Of a stretch of DNA of 64,000 bases, positions 13,444-61,382 are shown in pieces; within the stretch, counting starts at the first letter, position 1, and each line of letters opens with the position of its first letter. The translations under genes were made by a program, and so were the position numbers. The notes under the pieces were generated by a model that worked only from the letters and a program-made list of their open reading frames with translations, did no database searches and was not told where the DNA came from. Source of the DNA: Candidatus Heimdallarchaeota archaeon (GTDB lineage: Archaea; Asgardarchaeota; Heimdallarchaeia; JABLTI01); NCBI GenBank assembly GCA_019056785.1, contig DXJV01000068.1, forward strand, positions 64,001 to 128,000, read 5' to 3'.

Positions 13444-15693
13444 ATGACGCAAGAAACAGTGAAGAAAAACGAACTAAACCTTACAAAAGAGGAAAAAGAA
13501 GCAGTGTTTACCACTTTAAAACGTGACCTTACGCTCCCTGAAGCAGCAATGTTAGAAGTAATGAATTCTGAGCACTGCAGTTATAAAAGTTCGCGGCCTG
13601 TATTGCCAAAATTACCAACAGAGGGGCCTCAGGTGATTTGTGGTCCGGGCGAGGATGCAGGTGTGGTGGATATAGGTGATGGATTAGCTCTGGTGTTTAA
13701 ACTCGAGTCACATAACCACCCCAGTGCCTTAGATCCTTACAATGGCGCGGCAACGGGCATTGGTGGCATCATTCGGGACATTCTTTGTATGGGAGCTAGA
13801 CCCATTGGGTTGCTAGACAGCTTTCGTTTTGGTCCACTCTCAAATCCACACACAAAATGGTTATTAAAATGGGTGACGAAAGGAGTTGGCGATTATGGCA
13901 ATTGTGTTGGAATTGCAAATGCAGGTGGCGAAATTGAATTTGACCCCTCGTTCCAGGTAAATTGCCTTATAAATGTTGGCTGTTTTGGGGTCATGAGAAA
14001 AGAGGAACTGGCATTAAGTCGCGCAACCACTCCTGGAGACAAACTTATCCTTCTTGGAGGATCAACTGGTCGAGATGGCATCGGTGGTGCATCCTTCGCT
14101 TCTAAAAATATAACAGATGAATCTGAAAGTGATAGAGGGGCAGTGCAAATTGGTGACCCCTACATGAAAAAGCTCATTATTGATGCAACTCTCGAGGCAA
14201 TACAAGTGGGACTAGTGGCCGGTTTGAAAGATCTTGGCGCTGCGGGGGTTACTTGCTCGATTTCAGAAACTGCTGATGCAGGCGGGACTGGCACTGAAAT
14301 AGATCTTGAAAAAATAAGGATACGCGAAAGTGACATGGAACCTTGGGAGATTCTTGTGAGTGAATCGCAAGAACGAATGTTCTTTATCGTTAAACCTGAG
14401 AATGTTGAAAAAATTAGTGCAATATTTAAGAAGTATGACTTACCCTATGAAATTTTGGGAACTGTGACAGATTCCGGGCATTGTGTCGTGAAATATAAAG
14501 GACAAAAAATTGTGGATTTGCCTGCTCATCTTTTAACCAAACCTCCCACAACCAAACGAAAGACAAGAAAACCAAAGTATCTTTCTAAATTGGATCAAAA
14601 ATGGCTTCCCAAGGAACCAAAAGTAGAAGAGTACAATGACCTTTGTCGAAGATTAATGGCAAGCGACAATATCATAAGTAGAGAGTGGGTCTATCGGCAA
14701 TATGATACCGAAATAGGATTGCATTCTGTTGTAAAATCAGGGGAAGGAGACGCCGGTGTGTTTCGGCTCCAAGAATTTGGAACAAAAAGAGGGGTAGCAG
14801 TTACGTTTGATGGCAACTCAAGTCAGTGTTATTTAGACCCTTACAATGGCTCAGCAGCACTTCTTGTTGAAGCGTGCTGTAATATTGCAGCTGTGGGGGC
14901 CAAACCGCTGGCATTTACAGACTGCTTGAACTTTGGCAACCCCGAAGATCCAGAGGTGTTCTGGACATTTGAAAAAGCAGTTGAAGGGTTAGCAGATGCA
15001 GCCAAAGTATTAGAAGTACCATGTGTCGGGGGGAATGTGAGTTTCTATAATCACGACGAAGCTAATAATGTTGCAGTTAAACCTTCACCAGTGGTTTTTG
15101 TTGCAGGCGTTCTTGAAGATGCCACAAAAGCTGTAAATAAAAAACTCAAAGCTGCGGACGAATTTATTTTCCTCGTAGGGGAAACGAAAACAGAACTTGG
15201 CGGTTCAGAATATGCTAAAGTGGCTTATAACTCAGAAAATGGCCTTGTACCACAGGTTGACTTGTCGAAAGCAAAACTAATCATTCAAGACATTATCAAA
15301 GTTATCAAAGAAGGGTTAGTGACTGCTTGTCATGATATTTCTAAAGGCGGCTTTTTTGTAGCATTAACTGAAATGGCCCTAGCCGGGAATCTCGGTTTTG
15401 ATATCAACTTACGACGGATAGTAGCAGATACGGAACGGAGCGACATTAAACTCTTCTCAGAAACACCGGCACGTTTCATTATCACAACAAAAGAAGAGAA
15501 CATTGAGAAAATCATTGCTACGTTTGCTCGACACGAAATCCCTGCCTCCTTCCTTGGGAAAGTGAGTTCTGAAAAACGGCTAGTAATCCAGGACAAAGAT
15601 AAGCAGCTTGTCAATCTTTCATTAGATGAGATAAATCAAGTGTGGAAATATCGTTTGGAAGAAGAGATGGAAGGGAAGAAAGAAGAGAGGTAA
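13444..15693 (+). CDS. purL: FGAM synthase subunit PurL (small type)
   Basis: SEHCSYKSS, ESHNHPS, DLGAAG, SESQERM, GGNVSFYN. Confidence 0.98.
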   Translation: MTQETVKKNELNLTKEEKEAVFTTLKRDLTLPEAAMLEVMNSEHCSYKSSRPVLPKLPTEGPQVICGPGEDAGVVDIGDGLALVFKLESHNHPSALDPYNGAATGIGGIIRDILCMGARPIGLLDSFRFGPLSNPHTKWLLKWVTKGVGDYGNCVGIANAGGEIEFDPSFQVNCLINVGCFGVMRKEELALSRATTPGDKLILLGGSTGRDGIGGASFASKNITDESESDRGAVQIGDPYMKKLIIDATLEAIQVGLVAGLKDLGAAGVTCSISETADAGGTGTEIDLEKIRIRESDMEPWEILVSESQERMFFIVKPENVEKISAIFKKYDLPYEILGTVTDSGHCVVKYKGQKIVDLPAHLLTKPPTTKRKTRKPKYLSKLDQKWLPKEPKVEEYNDLCRRLMASDNIISREWVYRQYDTEIGLHSVVKSGEGDAGVFRLQEFGTKRGVAVTFDGNSSQCYLDPYNGSAALLVEACCNIAAVGAKPLAFTDCLNFGNPEDPEVFWTFEKAVEGLADAAKVLEVPCVGGNVSFYNHDEANNVAVKPSPVVFVAGVLEDATKAVNKKLKAADEFIFLVGETKTELGGSEYAKVAYNSENGLVPQVDLSKAKLIIQDIIKVIKEGLVTACHDISKGGFFVALTEMALAGNLGFDINLRRIVADTERSDIKLFSETPARFIITTKEENIEKIIATFARHEIPASFLGKVSSEKRLVIQDKDKQLVNLSLDEINQVWKYRLEEEMEGKKEER

Positions 15694-30304: not shown

Positions 30305-31030
30305 ATGGCGTAAAATCTATTGCTAGATAACAATCTGGTTATCGTTAGAAATCAAGATCCTTTGAATTTGGTGAATCTCGAGTTTTTGCTCTTAATGGTG
30401 TAGATATGGAGGTAAAAAAAAGGAGAGTTTGTGGTTATTCTTGGACCAAGTGGTGTAGGTAAAACAACTCTTCTAAACATGATTGGGGGTATTGATCTTC
30501 CAACGGAAGGGGAAGTTATTGTTGATGATGAACTAATAACTAGTTATAACCTCGAGGCGCTAAATGCTTATAGAAGGAATGATGTGGAGTAGGTGTTTCA
30601 ATTCTTTAATATTGTAGCAAGCCTTCGCGCCTGGGAAAATGTGGGGCTTGCTTTGGAGTTTCAAGGAAAATTGAAGCAAGCAGAAATAAAAGAACAAGCG
30701 TTTAAAATTCTGAAAAAAGTAGGATTAGAAGGAAAAGAAGACCGCTTCCCTAGCCAATTGTCTGGGGGGGAACAACAACGAGTAGCAATTGCTCGAGCGT
30801 TAATCAAGAAGCCAAAGATTGTGGTGGCTGACGAACCCACCGGCAACCTCGACTACTTAACCGGGCAGAGCGTTGCAGAATTAATGCGGGATCTTAATCG
30901 GCAAGAAGGGGTAACCTTTATTGTGGTTTCTCATGATTCAAACATCACAAAGTATGCAGATAGAGTTTTTCATCTTCGCATGGGTAAAATTGAGAGAATT
31001 GATGACCAATCGCAAAAAAATACCCCCTAA
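30305..31030 (+). pseudogene. LolD/MacB-type ABC ATPase, disrupted
   Basis: Walker A GPSGVGKT lies upstream of the tracked ORF; TAA at codon 3, indels including an A8 run at ~30414, and in-frame TAG at 30590-30592. Confidence 0.82.
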
Positions 31031-31092: not shown

Positions 31093-32187
31093 CTATCGCC
31101 AATAAAAGTACATTGTTTTTGCTTTTTTCGGGAGTTCTATCCCAGACCAGTTAAAAAGATCGATCCCCAATTTTTTCTTAAAGAAAATGAAATTTGCTTT
31201 CACAAAAGGTTTGGCATTAAAATAAGGGATGTATGGTGTTTGCAAGCCTTTCCAACCTCTTTTAACTGCCTCTTGGGAGAGGAAGTTTGCCAGATCTCTT
31301 ATCTCTTTTTTCCTCAATTTATAAACATGTGCACTATCTAACCAGCCAAAGGGTATCTTTTTGCCAAATCCCGCAAGTAGAAATTCCCATGCAAGGATAT
31401 AGCCATCAACTTGACCATCTGTGTTTTCATGGATAACACAAAGAACATTCGGATTACCCAGCATCCATTTTAGAACTTCTTTCTCAGGAATAATAGAAAT
31501 GTCAGCACGCGCCACAAGCTCTTTTGTTAGGTTAAAGATTTCCTCAAAATCGTCAGGTTGGTAAAGTCGGAACACTGGCGAGTGCACCGGCTTGATTTTC
31601 TCTTTCAATTTAAAAACTAATTTTTCATACCATTTGACTTTCACTACTTGTGCGGCTGCTTCTGTGTCAAAAATACGAATCACATATTTATTTAAAGAAA
31701 CTAATCGCATAAGGGGGATGTTTGTCTCTCGTGCTACAGATTGTGAAGTATCTATTCCGTGTTGTTCGGGCTCATGAAAGGAAAAACCAGCTTCATAACC
31801 TGCTTGTTGCCCAAGCTCCAGCATTTTTTCCCCCATTGTTTTAGCCAAACCTTGCTTTTGATGTTTGGGGTGAACACAAAGCCAGGAGGGAATTGCGCTT
31901 TTGTAAACTTTCCCGTCAATTGAAAGGTTCTTATTAATCGTTCCTAAAAAACCAACTATTTCATTAGTTGGCTTATAAATTGCTCGTACAAAGAGTTCGC
32001 GATTAATGCTGGGCGCACCAAACATTATTCGAAAGGTTGGTTCATTAAAAACAATAGTCGCGCCTTCTTGTTGGGCGGCTTCATCAGCAAGAAAAGCAGC
32101 TGTAATTAGCTCTACAAACCGACCAAAGTCTTTCTCTTCTAATGTAAATTGCTCAATTTTGTAATTCTCGCTTGTTTCTACTGCCAT
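31093..32187 (-). CDS. Tandem-GNAT acyltransferase resembling N-myristoyltransferase
   Basis: IVGFLG...WLCVHPKHQKQGLA; second GNAT half FRLYQPDD...KWML; DLFNW near C-terminus. Confidence 0.75.
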   Translation of the reverse strand: MAVETSENYKIEQFTLEEKDFGRFVELITAAFLADEAAQQEGATIVFNEPTFRIMFGAPSINRELFVRAIYKPTNEIVGFLGTINKNLSIDGKVYKSAIPSWLCVHPKHQKQGLAKTMGEKMLELGQQAGYEAGFSFHEPEQHGIDTSQSVARETNIPLMRLVSLNKYVIRIFDTEAAAQVVKVKWYEKLVFKLKEKIKPVHSPVFRLYQPDDFEEIFNLTKELVARADISIIPEKEVLKWMLGNPNVLCVIHENTDGQVDGYILAWEFLLAGFGKKIPFGWLDSAHVYKLRKKEIRDLANFLSQEAVKRGWKGLQTPYIPYFNAKPFVKANFIFFKKKLGIDLFNWSGIELPKKAKTMYFYWR

Positions 32188-32358
32188 ATTGATTGTCTCC
32201 TAAAAAAAATAACTTGCCAAAGTTAATTGTTCTGTAGATTCAGCGTTAATAAACTTTTTTTGCTGCCTTTTAATCCCACTTTGTCTCTAGTAATTGCTCA
32301 AATTTCTCCCATGTAATTGAAAGGCATTCCCCTTCTAGGTTTTTAAACAGAGGTTCTT

Positions 32359-33142: not shown

Positions 33143-34063
33143 TTAATAGTCTTTGAATAGTCCTTTTACACTTAAATATCTTTGACCCGAGTCTGCTAAA
33201 ATCACTACCAGAGATTTACCTTTAAATTCCTCTCTTTTAAGAAGCCGTTCAGCCGCATGACAAACCGCGCCAGAGCTGATACCAACAAGTAAGCCTTCTT
33301 TTACTGCCAGGCGTCTACACATAGCAAATGCTTCTTCCTCCTCCACCAAGAAAATCTCATCGATAAGGTCTCTCTCGAGTGTCTCCGGAACAAACCCTGG
33401 AGCAGTGCCCATAATTCGATGGGGCTTAAAAATCCCTTTTGAAATATACGGTGCTTGTGCCGGTTCGATCGCGATTAATTTCACACTTGCCTTTTGCTCT
33501 TTCAGATATTTTCCTGCGCCACAAATTGTTCCACCGGTTCCTAAACCAGCAATTAGCACATCTATATTGCCTTCTAAATCGCGCTAAATCTCTGGTCCGG
33601 TTGTGAGGTAATGGGCTTTGGGGTTTGATGGTCTCACATGCTGACCGACATAAAAATAGTCGGGATGGTTTGTGAGTAAGTCTTTCAATTTTTCGCGAGC
33701 GCCCTTTGTTCCAAGTTCCGCGGGCGTAAGAATTATCTGTGCACCAAAGGCTCGCATGATCTGTCGTCGCTCAACACTTTGAATTTCAGACATCACAAGG
33801 ATAGCTTTGTAACCTTTGACTGCTGAGATGAATGAAACAGCTATTCCTGTATTTCCACTTGTACATTCAATTACTGTGTCTCCTGGTTTTAATTCCCCTT
33901 CTTTTTCGGCGTCCTCAAAAATCTGTAAGATGGCCCTGTCCTTAACACTCATCGGATTTATAAATTCGCATTTAGCAAAAACTGTTGCTTTGGGAAAAAG
34001 ACGCCCCAATCTTATGAGTGGCGTTTTTCCAATCAATTCTGTAATATCATTAGCAATGTGCAT
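33143..34063 (-). pseudogene. cysK: Cysteine synthase interrupted by a single in-frame TAG (33584-33586)
   Basis: IGKTPL, SVKDR PLP lysine, TSGNTG, TTGPEI*RDL, GTGGT, GISSG; both halves in the same frame. Confidence 0.88.
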
Positions 34064-59933: not shown

Positions 59934-61382
59934 TTACTCAAGTATTTTGTTCAGTGACAACGCCGGATAGTCCAAAGCGGCAACTAATTCTTGCATACTG
60001 TCTTTCGCCAATTCAACCCTCGAGTAACTTTTCAGTAGTTGGTTCACTTTATCTGTCGCTCGTTGGGCAATGGTTTTCCTTCCGAGAGCTATCCATTCAT
60101 CATTTGTTCCTCTGTCGATTAGCTTGCTGGGGAGATAGTGGTCCTTTCTAAACCACTTTAGGGTATGATCATGGGCGAGTAAGTGAGTGGTCTGCTCATC
60201 AAATTCTGCCAATAAATGTTTTGCAATGGGTTCATCCCGTTGTTGTATTCCTTCGACAAAACGATAGATCATCCCGCAAAGCTCGTTATCTATGACCACT
60301 TTTTGGATGCTCTGAGTTGTCTCAAAATTCAACATTCCCGCACCTGAAATCATGTTCACTCCCTTTATTCCTGCAAGAAGGGCGCCCATACCAGTTTCAA
60401 AGCCGGCTTGCATGTCTAAGATTTTTGTGTCTGACATGCCAAGGTAGGCGTGGGTTGGTATATTAAGGAATTTGCCAATTTCGACATAGCCAAGGTCCAG
60501 TATCATCGTATCAATCGACCCCATAGGTGTAGTACCTTTTCGCATATCAAATGCGGCTGGTGAGCCACCCCAAATGAGCGGCGCACTTGGAGAAACGAGC
60601 TGAGTGATAACTAACCCTGCCAAGGTTTCAGCAGTATGTTGAACGATGGCGCCGAGAATAGTCACAGGCGCATTTGCCCCTGTCATCGGCATCGAAACAA
60701 ATTCTGAAGGAATGCCTGCTTTTGCAGCATCAATTATACTCTGGCAAGTTAAGTCACTCCATTTTAAAGGGGGAGATGGGCATGCATCAAAAATGGCGAG
60801 AGGCTTTTGCTTTAGTTCTTTTTCACTTCCACGGATTGCGACTAGCATTTTCTTCATCGCGGCAAAATTTGTCTTAAGAAAAGTGCCGGTGACAATTGGC
60901 TTGCTGGAAAATATGAGGCTTAAGAATAATCGATATTTATCAGAGAGTTCTTTGGGGACATCGGAACAAATAATGGCCGTACTCTGGGCCTTAATATACT
61001 CGAGTTGCTCGACTACTTTAGTAAACTCAATATAATCTCGTGTAACTGCCGATCGAATTTCGCCTGTTTGATAATCAAGAACAGTTAGTGCCGCTGAACC
61101 GGGGTCAAAACAGATGTTTTCTTTTGTCAAGTCACAGACTTTTTTCCCCTCACGGTCAAAAAGTGGAATAATTGATGGGGCTGTGGAAAGTGCCTTCTCT
61201 ATAAGGTCAGGAGGAAATTTAACCCGATGCTTTTCAATATCAATTTCTGCATCATTCTCTTTTAAAAGTTCGAGTGCTTCTTGGTTCTCAATAAACGCGC
61301 CGATTTCTGCTAAAATCTCTTTTGCTTCACTAATAACCTTCTTCTTTAACTCCTCAGTTAGAACCTGTATCGCCGGCCTCAA
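59934..61382 (-). CDS. Non-pyrrolysine MttB-superfamily methyltransferase (methylated amine:corrinoid)
   Basis: GANAPVT, AETLAG, DMRKG, GMSDTK..DMQAGFE (Met at the Pyl-equivalent site), GAGML. Confidence 0.9.
   Translation of the reverse strand: MRPAIQVLTEELKKKVISEAKEILAEIGAFIENQEALELLKENDAEIDIEKHRVKFPPDLIEKALSTAPSIIPLFDREGKKVCDLTKENICFDPGSAALTVLDYQTGEIRSAVTRDYIEFTKVVEQLEYIKAQSTAIICSDVPKELSDKYRLFLSLIFSSKPIVTGTFLKTNFAAMKKMLVAIRGSEKELKQKPLAIFDACPSPPLKWSDLTCQSIIDAAKAGIPSEFVSMPMTGANAPVTILGAIVQHTAETLAGLVITQLVSPSAPLIWGGSPAAFDMRKGTTPMGSIDTMILDLGYVEIGKFLNIPTHAYLGMSDTKILDMQAGFETGMGALLAGIKGVNMISGAGMLNFETTQSIQKVVIDNELCGMIYRFVEGIQQRDEPIAKHLLAEFDEQTTHLLAHDHTLKWFRKDHYLPSKLIDRGTNDEWIALGRKTIAQRATDKVNQLLKSYSRVELAKDSMQELVAALDYPALSLNKILE

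Follow-up and report, generated by a model that had tools for sequence, protein, structure and literature searches.

A single gene within the 64,000-nucleotide stretch of Candidatus Heimdallarchaeota archaeon DNA analysed here (positions 64,001 to 128,000 of contig DXJV01000068.1; hereafter the window) encodes a 364-residue protein, P0001, whose closest characterised relatives are the eukaryotic N-myristoyltransferases (NMTs). We read P0001 as an NMT-type tandem-GNAT acyl-coenzyme A (acyl-CoA) N-acyltransferase that would use its own C-terminal carboxylate in catalysis and whose likeliest acceptor would be the alpha-amine of a protein or peptide N-terminus, a reading that we hold, taken as a whole, with about even confidence. 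The likeness to NMT is confirmed as real and lies far above chance, and P0001 is one archaeal branch of a prokaryote-wide family of NMT-type tandem GNATs that includes bacteria. Canonical glycine myristoylation by P0001 is unlikely, and the protein is not demonstrably the ancestor of eukaryotic NMT.

A preliminary description of this DNA had placed the gene at 31093-32187, and an intact minus-strand open reading frame (ORF) of 364 amino acids is found at exactly those coordinates. The gene and its parts, in window coordinates, are as follows.

31093..32187, minus strand: whole coding sequence of P0001, 364 amino acids plus stop, an uninterrupted ORF (ORF list, translation).
31672..32163, minus strand: N-terminal GNAT half, about residues 9-172, predicted to bind acyl-CoA (Pfam, profile alignment, model secondary structure).
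31843..31890, minus strand: catalytic strand and CoA loop, residues 100-115 (residue-by-residue alignment to 1iic).
31573..31671, minus strand: inter-domain linker, about residues 173-205 (model secondary structure; hhalign match to the NMT linker).
31153..31572, minus strand: C-terminal GNAT half, about residues 206-345, predicted to bind the acceptor (profile, hhalign, conservation table).
31096..31152, minus strand: C-terminal tail, residues 346-364, with the invariant W363-R364 at its end (model superposition, homologue ends).
32197..32260, minus strand: putative own promoter and ribosome-binding site, as read from the sequence.

When P0001 was used alone in a phmmer search of the PDB, all 13 matches were NMTs, each of them weak (best E 0.012). 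With a family profile built from 30 members (alignment A1), 36 distinct NMT sequences ranked first (E 1.7e-12 to 1e-5), and the first GNAT other than an NMT appeared only at E 0.015. This profile aligned residues 17-126 with residues 56-162 of yeast Nmt1p and residues 199-263 with residues 222-294, and ran in one stretch (17-267 with 76-311) along the NMT of P. vivax. An hhalign comparison with an alignment of 17 eukaryotic NMTs gave a probability of 99.5% (E 3.2e-23) over 277 columns, colinear in both halves and reaching column 324, at an identity between P0001 and NMT of ~13%. The proposal of a tandem GNAT related to NMT over both halves is thus borne out, and three of the motif pairings first put forward for it were recovered by the alignment programs: phmmer and the profile pair the VGF...WLCVH block with VAF/VGF...FLCVH of NMT; the LR..KD...EHW block, from R207 and D213 to near W241, is paired in the second stretch of the profile alignment and by hhalign; and hhalign sets the block around ENTDGQVDGY ('HEN.DG..DGY') against 'VEN....I.DF' of NMT. 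A further pairing, of the last strand and the tail, lies beyond the reach of the sequence alignment and stands on the structural superposition, which runs to the final residue. Pfam matches to P0001 fall within residues 9-129, the best of them being Acetyltransf_9 (E 7e-7), which outscores a marginal match of the NMT N-domain (PF01233) to residues 9-118 (26.5 bits against a cut-off of 25). Homology to the NMT C-domain is seen at profile level only, and the Eis-related models of NCBIfam scored just 11-16 bits against cut-offs of 463-701 (E 0.005-0.14).

An AlphaFold2 model of P0001, predicted from the family alignment (mean predicted local distance difference test score 92.6; predicted template modelling score 0.89), uses all 364 residues for the two GNAT halves and has no SCP2-like third domain. 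The best 50 PDB matches of this model in Foldseek are all NMTs (E 1e-21, template modelling (TM) score 0.72-0.79, ~365 columns). Yeast NMT also came first (Z 31.8, 338 residues at 2.9 Å) in a VIA-align search of 48,161 representative chains, made independently of Foldseek, with Cryptosporidium NMT at Z 29.7; behind NMT came MAB_4324 (22.9), Eis (20.2), 3ddd (20.1) and the clavulanate tandem GNAT (19.1) and, further down, MshD (15.4) and HisAT (14.7). Against 50 NMT entries the model scored Z 31.5-33.3. The structural comparison with NMT and Eis that had been suggested as a check thus favours NMT, with Eis far behind.

NMT is unusual in that its own C-terminal carboxylate serves in catalysis, and the chain end of P0001 bears directly on this. 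Residue 364 of the model superimposes on the last residue of human (496), yeast (455) and A. fumigatus (492) NMT, and the same register holds for the enzymes of L. major (421), P. vivax (410) and C. albicans (451). Engineered truncations of human NMT1 provide controls: the alignment stops at model residue 361 against the deltaC3 form, which ends at 493, and at model residue 363 against the deltaC2 form, which ends at 494. The position of the end is also conserved among homologues. Trp-Arg closes the chain in 111 of 117 family homologues (the remainder look truncated), the end lies exactly 49 residues past the Q316 motif in 108 of the 111 members in which that motif was found, and a joint alignment places a common end column in all 16 Asgard sequences and in 62 of 63 other prokaryotic relatives (78 of 79 together). 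The question of whether the C-terminus enters the active site, raised in the preliminary description, can therefore be answered at the level of the model, whose last residue falls on the catalytic C-terminal residue of NMT with the truncation structures as controls; from this we infer that the C-terminus of P0001 probably occupies the active site, as it does in NMT.

In the predicted active site, P100-S-W102-L103-C-V105-H106 aligns position by position with I168-N-F170-L171-C-V-H174 of the yeast enzyme (1iic), in which F170-L171 form the oxyanion-hole bulge. P100 and V105 are invariant in the family and W102 is nearly so, and in P0001 the bulge strand is followed by a canonical GNAT pyrophosphate-binding motif, Q110-x-x-G113-x-A115. 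The Asgard family, its other prokaryotic relatives and NMT have P59, V78-G79-F80, V105, R207, D213, L220, G311 and F333 in common, and the occurrence of such residues in both halves fits a single ancestral tandem-GNAT fusion. The C-terminal half also carries invariants specific to the Asgard family (W241, G273, G281-W282, W312, Q316 and P318), and the alignment of the family has 27 invariant columns.

On these grounds a catalytic scheme can be proposed in which acyl-CoA would bind the N-terminal half and the acceptor would sit in a pocket made by the C-terminal half together with the linker. The predicted general base, the free C-terminal carboxylate at R364, would fold back to the active site and take a proton from the acceptor amine, which would then attack the thioester, with the amides of the bulge stabilising the oxyanion. 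The side chains of the invariant Trp-Arg pair probably hold the tail in place or touch the substrate. The elements of the mechanism shared with NMT, namely the CoA loop, the bulge and the C-terminal carboxylate, are well supported by inference. The least secure step is the last, in which we take the acceptor to be, most likely, the alpha-amine at certain protein or peptide N-termini, the enzyme differing in specificity from glycine-selective NMT.

To see how widely this protein is shared, we used a word-indexed search, which returned 117 homologues, nearly all of 360-367 amino acids; where named, these come mostly from Heimdall-, Loki-, Thor-, Promethearchae- or 'Asgard group' archaea, and Lokiarchaeum ossiferum is among the carriers (orthologue P0104). 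Full-length homologues are 44-74% identical, a range which, across Heimdall-, Loki- and Thor-labelled genomes and together with the 27 invariant columns, suggests that the Asgard family is under purifying selection. A scan of 400 genomes of the phylum gave strong matches in all 11 genomes of P0001's own family, in 27 of 31 genomes of family f3, in 11 of 14 of f19 (carriers here include closed genomes of 4.4 and 6.0 Mb), in 2 of 4 of f21 and in part of f31. No match was found in f5 (0 of 12), f6 (0 of 22) or f12 (0 of 19), f20 gave weak, paralogue-level matches only (2 of 135 genomes), and the gene is not present in most of the Asgard families sampled. The genome of P0001 has a single copy and several congeners have 2-4 matches, among them G081, of the same genus, in which two copies stand in tandem (C78:12629-13708 and 13855-14934). 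Two closed genomes of a sister family carry broken copies, one with two TAG codons and one TAA inside the match (G015:C1:1011617-1012699) and one in two separate fragments (G016:C1:1138307-1141232), which indicates that the NMT-type gene has been lost in that genus.

The Asgard proteins belong to a much wider set. An exhaustive profile search recovered 261 representatives at E <= 0.001, in which a large tier of 330-410-residue proteins, many ending in an aromatic or aliphatic residue plus Arg, lies beyond the Asgard family, and the bona fide eukaryotic NMTs rank after this prokaryotic tier. A similarity network likewise gathered 85 prokaryotic representatives, including the Asgard family, into one group and 22 NMTs into another. 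Named archaeal members of the wider family include Sigynarchaeota and Thermoplasmata, and its largest subgroup is bacterial (Anaerolineae, Bradymonadales/Myxococcota, Aminicenantes, Acidobacteriota). In a shape search of the ESM Atlas, bacterial GNAT clusters lead (TM 0.87, 0.86 and 0.81), followed by eukaryotic NMT clusters at TM 0.81 and giant-virus NMTs at 0.73. When 12 prokaryotic subgroups were scored against NMT with hhalign, the Asgard family (173.6) tied for best with the group of P0151 (173.1), a singleton that lies above both Pfam NMT domain cut-offs, and the others scored 112-158. P0001 itself is a tandem GNAT of the ~350-residue type, has no extra domains and ends at the common column. 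The preliminary description had rightly allowed for prokaryotic tandem GNATs that serve other roles. A recent study of HisAT/NAT16 (PMC12219266, Nat Commun 2025) uses 'NMT-type' for double GNATs with the C-terminus at the active site, reports with surprise that predicted structures of this type occur in archaea and bacteria, and has one uncharacterised Thorarchaeota protein among them in its table. The observation at fold level is thus already in print; PMC12219266 does not describe the Asgard proteins as a family of their own, nor the distribution of that family or its invariant Trp-Arg end. In our literature search we found no paper that pairs N-myristoyltransferase with Asgard archaea.

Several points weigh against our reading of P0001 and must be set beside the evidence above. 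At the positions of yeast Asn169 and Thr205, which hold the ammonium of the substrate's N-terminal glycine, P0001 has S101, a position that is S/A/G across the family, and E132, which varies among D/E/Q/N and others, so that both glycine contacts of NMT are replaced. An 18-residue segment specific to the family (~138-155, with invariant G144) takes the place of part of the lining of the NMT peptide groove, and the Pfam NMT_C domain (PF02799) gave no match to P0001 at E up to 10. The argument from the C-terminus is drawn from the superposition ranges of a predicted model, and the C-terminus of Eis also returns to the active site. Close structural relatives occur in bacteria without Arf-like GTPases, and small molecules are the substrates of most prokaryotic tandem GNATs that have been characterised. 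Weighing these together, we judge that a small-molecule acceptor may be nearly as likely as a protein N-terminus.

The rival that survives best is accordingly a small-molecule N-acetyltransferase using acetyl-CoA, like Eis, MshD, GlmA, HisAT/NAT16 or the clavulanate tandem GNAT, with a metabolite, an antibiotic or an amino acid as acceptor and a likeness to NMT owed only to the shared ancestry of the tandem-GNAT scaffold; we regard this as a serious possibility, though a somewhat doubtful one. It would explain why the CoA loop of P0001 is of the canonical acetyl-CoA type, from which NMT has diverged, why the best Pfam match is to the Eis-type N-domain, and why NMT's peptide-contact residues are not retained. 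The structural neighbours behind NMT are small-molecule enzymes, the nearest clusters of predicted structures are bacterial GNATs, at TM 0.86-0.87 above the 0.81 of NMT, and the family is widespread in bacteria. Against this, a gap of 9 Z units separates NMT from the best-scoring small-molecule tandem GNAT, and four distant orthologue loci have neither a conserved partner gene nor any conserved biosynthetic or resistance context. The strong conservation across Asgard classes points to a fixed acceptor, although this could still be a metabolite. Candidate recurring neighbours (PALP next door in one Heimdall genome and GH20 nearby in another) were discarded, as the four loci share no partner. 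Since no operon context is conserved and the nearest characterised relative modifies proteins, we prefer a protein acceptor to a pathway intermediate.

At the other extreme P0001 might be a true archaeal NMT, a sister or ancestor of the eukaryotic enzyme that fatty-acylates N-terminal Gly after removal of Met, which we consider improbable. By every measure, no characterised protein is closer to P0001 than NMT; the chains of the two end at the same point and, as noted above, no prokaryotic subgroup has a better profile score to NMT. Support was 100% for both the NMT and the Asgard clade in a quick tree of 105 rows, in which a long stem leads to NMT. That tree's placement of NMT, outside all prokaryotes or with a long-branch group, proved unreliable in a more careful search and in approximately unbiased (AU) tests, and we therefore do not count it against an Asgard sister. 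The careful maximum-likelihood tree (a balanced set of 48 rows, LG+C20+F+G4 with posterior mean site frequencies, log-likelihood (lnL) -35101.14) has an unresolved backbone; in it the NMTs form a 100/100 clade on a long stem with P0001 outside, and the Asgard family groups not with NMT but with a Sigynarchaeota-containing subgroup (94/76), Asgard and NMT coming together in ~5% of bootstrap trees. A tree constrained to unite them lies 6.1 lnL units above the quick free tree, which makes it about equal to the careful tree, so that the constraint costs no likelihood (p-AU 0.73); uniting NMT with the P0151 group instead costs 7.4 lnL units (p-AU 0.29). Both the Asgard and the NMT lineages are long-stemmed, and attraction between them is a risk. 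An Asgard sister of NMT is thus compatible with the AU test and appears in few bootstrap trees: it is allowed but not shown. As for the preliminary description, its suggestion of a specific Asgard-to-eukaryote link to the ancestor of NMT is not shown to be right, given those bootstrap trees and the position of P0001 as one clade in a prokaryote-wide family; the phylogeny that it proposed as a check puts P0001 among bacterial and archaeal NMT-type proteins, while NMT is still the closest characterised relative. The replacement of both glycine contacts, the absence of the gene from most sampled Asgard families and the broken copies in two closed genomes likewise tell against a true NMT.

As candidate substrates, the genome of P0001 yields 39 Arf-family matches and a pair of ESCRT-III genes, and we made an exploratory reading of the N-termini of the best 13 of the 39 Arf-like matches, picking start codons by eye from the ORFs. 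Six of these 13 begin Met-Ser-Phe-Leu/Phe, ahead of a basic amphipathic stretch, and are encoded at the following places.

G000 C44:7553-8068: Arf-like gene, Met-Ser-Phe-Leu/Phe start.
G000 C75:37054-37545: Arf-like gene, Met-Ser-Phe-Leu/Phe start.
G000 C11:43260-43766: Arf-like gene, Met-Ser-Phe-Leu/Phe start.
G000 C88:1498-2010: Arf-like gene, Met-Ser-Phe-Leu/Phe start.
G000 C31:26847-27347: Arf-like gene, Met-Ser-Phe-Leu/Phe start.
G000 C49:47012-47524: Arf-like gene, Met-Ser-Phe-Leu/Phe start.

Other starts among the 13 include one Met-Ala-Phe-Ile, one Met-Val-Phe-Leu and one Met-Gly-Phe-Leu, the last of which would suit a true NMT. Glycine at position 2 is missing from 12 of the 13 best Arf-like proteins and from both ESCRT-III proteins, a scarcity that agrees with a published report that Asgard Arfs have no predicted myristoylation sites and bind membranes without myristoylation (PMC11914678). 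The claim that the enzyme acts on N-terminal Gly finds no support here, on three counts: the Asn169 and Thr205 equivalents are replaced, NMT_C finds no match, and a single Arf-like protein of 13 starts Met-Gly. It is speculation that the start of a small residue followed by Phe-Leu in the Arf-like proteins might itself be an acceptor. Two of the Arf-like genes, at C49:47012-47524 and C60:42311-42802, contain internal stop codons. In L. ossiferum the NMT-type gene is preceded, 200 bp upstream and on its own strand, by a 202-residue Ras/Arf-like GTPase (L004:5191-5799, plus strand) and followed closely by a CDP-alcohol phosphatidyltransferase; the GTPase, whose sequence opens with Met-Thr-Ala-Ser, was rejected as a client with glycine at position 2.

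A bolder version of our reading would make the Asgard family the sister of eukaryotic NMT, acylating the N-termini of Asgard proteins, with the Arf-like GTPases that carry Met-Ser-Phe-Leu/Phe before an amphipathic helix as candidates. This is a long shot; were it true, enzymatic N-terminal lipidation of proteins for membrane targeting would predate eukaryogenesis, and the move to glycine and myristate would have come afterwards, as a refinement made by eukaryotes. Finally, that P0001 is a catalytically dead scaffold or binding protein in which only the fold has been kept is very improbable indeed, for while G015 and G016 do carry broken copies, P0001 still has its CoA loop and bulge strand, ends at the exact C-terminal point and keeps the 27 invariant positions.

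The surroundings of the gene in the window have no functional theme. Its neighbours are a DUF6884 gene, a cysteine synthase, a GH20 hexosaminidase, an ABC ATPase fragment, an MBL-fold protein and an HD-domain protein. The gap to the DUF6884 gene upstream is 171 bp and contains an A-rich/TATA-like element (32246-32260) and a GGAG (32197-32200) 10 nt before the ATG of P0001, which suggests that the gene probably has its own promoter. The cysteine synthase gene (cysK, 33143-34063, minus strand) is split by a single in-frame TAG at 33584-33586, exactly where the Pro-Glu-Ile-Trp motif conserved in these enzymes has its Trp, TGG having become TAG; with the stop read through, the gene gives a full-length TIGR01139 match of 361 bits (cut-off 351), and the likeliest origin of the TAG is a nonsense mutation of recent date or an error of assembly. 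The ABC-transporter ATPase ORF (30593-31030, plus strand) covers only profile positions 65-136 of 137, towards the C-terminal end of the domain, with the Walker A half outside the open frame, and may be truncated or frameshifted. Further along the window, an Rfam PYLIS_3 match (60338-60437, minus strand; 39.4 bits, cut-off 38) lies inside an MttB-like ORF of 482 amino acids (59934-61382, minus strand). Pyrrolysine use was considered and rejected: this ORF has no in-frame TAG under the standard code and resembles those MttB-superfamily proteins that do without pyrrolysine, and there is no sign of pyrrolysine use anywhere in the window, the cysK TAG included.

NMT and N-myristoylation count as hallmarks of eukaryotes and are linked, by way of Arf GTPases, ESCRT-III and the proteasome subunit Rpt2, to the beginnings of membrane traffic. 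A well-conserved Asgard enzyme with the NMT fold and C-terminal device offers a concrete, expressible protein with which to ask if the acylation of protein N-termini is older than eukaryotes, or if a prokaryotic acyltransferase of small molecules was taken over by them. Work in vivo is feasible, as L. ossiferum, which carries P0104, is available in enrichment culture and the closed 4.4 and 6.0 Mb genomes of the same family carry the gene. The significance is tempered by the largely bacterial make-up of the wider family, by the NMT-type archaeal and bacterial structures already in print (PMC12219266) and by a phylogenetic link to NMT that is allowed rather than shown.

How P0001 stands among known systems can be summarised by comparison with four of them. 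The HisAT/NAT16 enzymes and archaeal proteins of the Ta0821 type resemble it as double GNATs with the acyl-CoA site in the N-terminal half, but differ in structure (Z 14.7 for HisAT) and in bringing a beta-hairpin of the second domain, rather than the C-terminus, to the active site (PMC12219266). Mycobacterial Eis and MAB_4324 (3sxn, 7q3a) are tandem GNATs with an Acetyltransf_9-type N-domain, and residue 364 of the model aligns to residue 402, the last, of Eis; they nonetheless reach only Z 20-23, and Eis has ~400 residues with a third, SCP2-like domain. The uncharacterised prokaryotic NMT-type proteins (here tier-2 groups P0138-P0260, loci L006-L016) match P0001 in length (~345-365 amino acids), in shape (ESM Atlas TM 0.81-0.87) and in their common end column. 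The 11 other prokaryotic subgroups score 145-287 against the Asgard family in hhalign, as against 173.6 for Asgard and NMT, a range that runs higher than the score of any subgroup to NMT. The Asgard family nevertheless forms its own clade with 100% support, marked by the Asgard-only invariants G42, P100, G144, W241, G281-W282, W312, Q316, P318 and W363. NMT itself (glycylpeptide N-tetradecanoyltransferase, EC 2.3.1.97, PF01233 plus PF02799; references yeast Nmt1p 2p6e/1iic and human NMT1 5o9s) differs from P0001 in beginning with a basic extension and a further ~35 core residues, all of which P0001 lacks, in a CoA loop of R-x-K-R-L-A/T in place of Q-x-x-G-x-A, in last residues that vary where the Trp-Arg of P0001 is invariant, and in having no counterpart of the family-specific segment 138-155. 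The two are alike in the full-length tandem-GNAT fold (Z 31-33, ~337 residues at 2.8-2.9 Å), in the colinearity of both halves, in the bulge strand x-W/F-L-C-V-H, in R207, D213 and F333 and, as the model predicts, in a chain that ends on the catalytic C-terminal residue of NMT.

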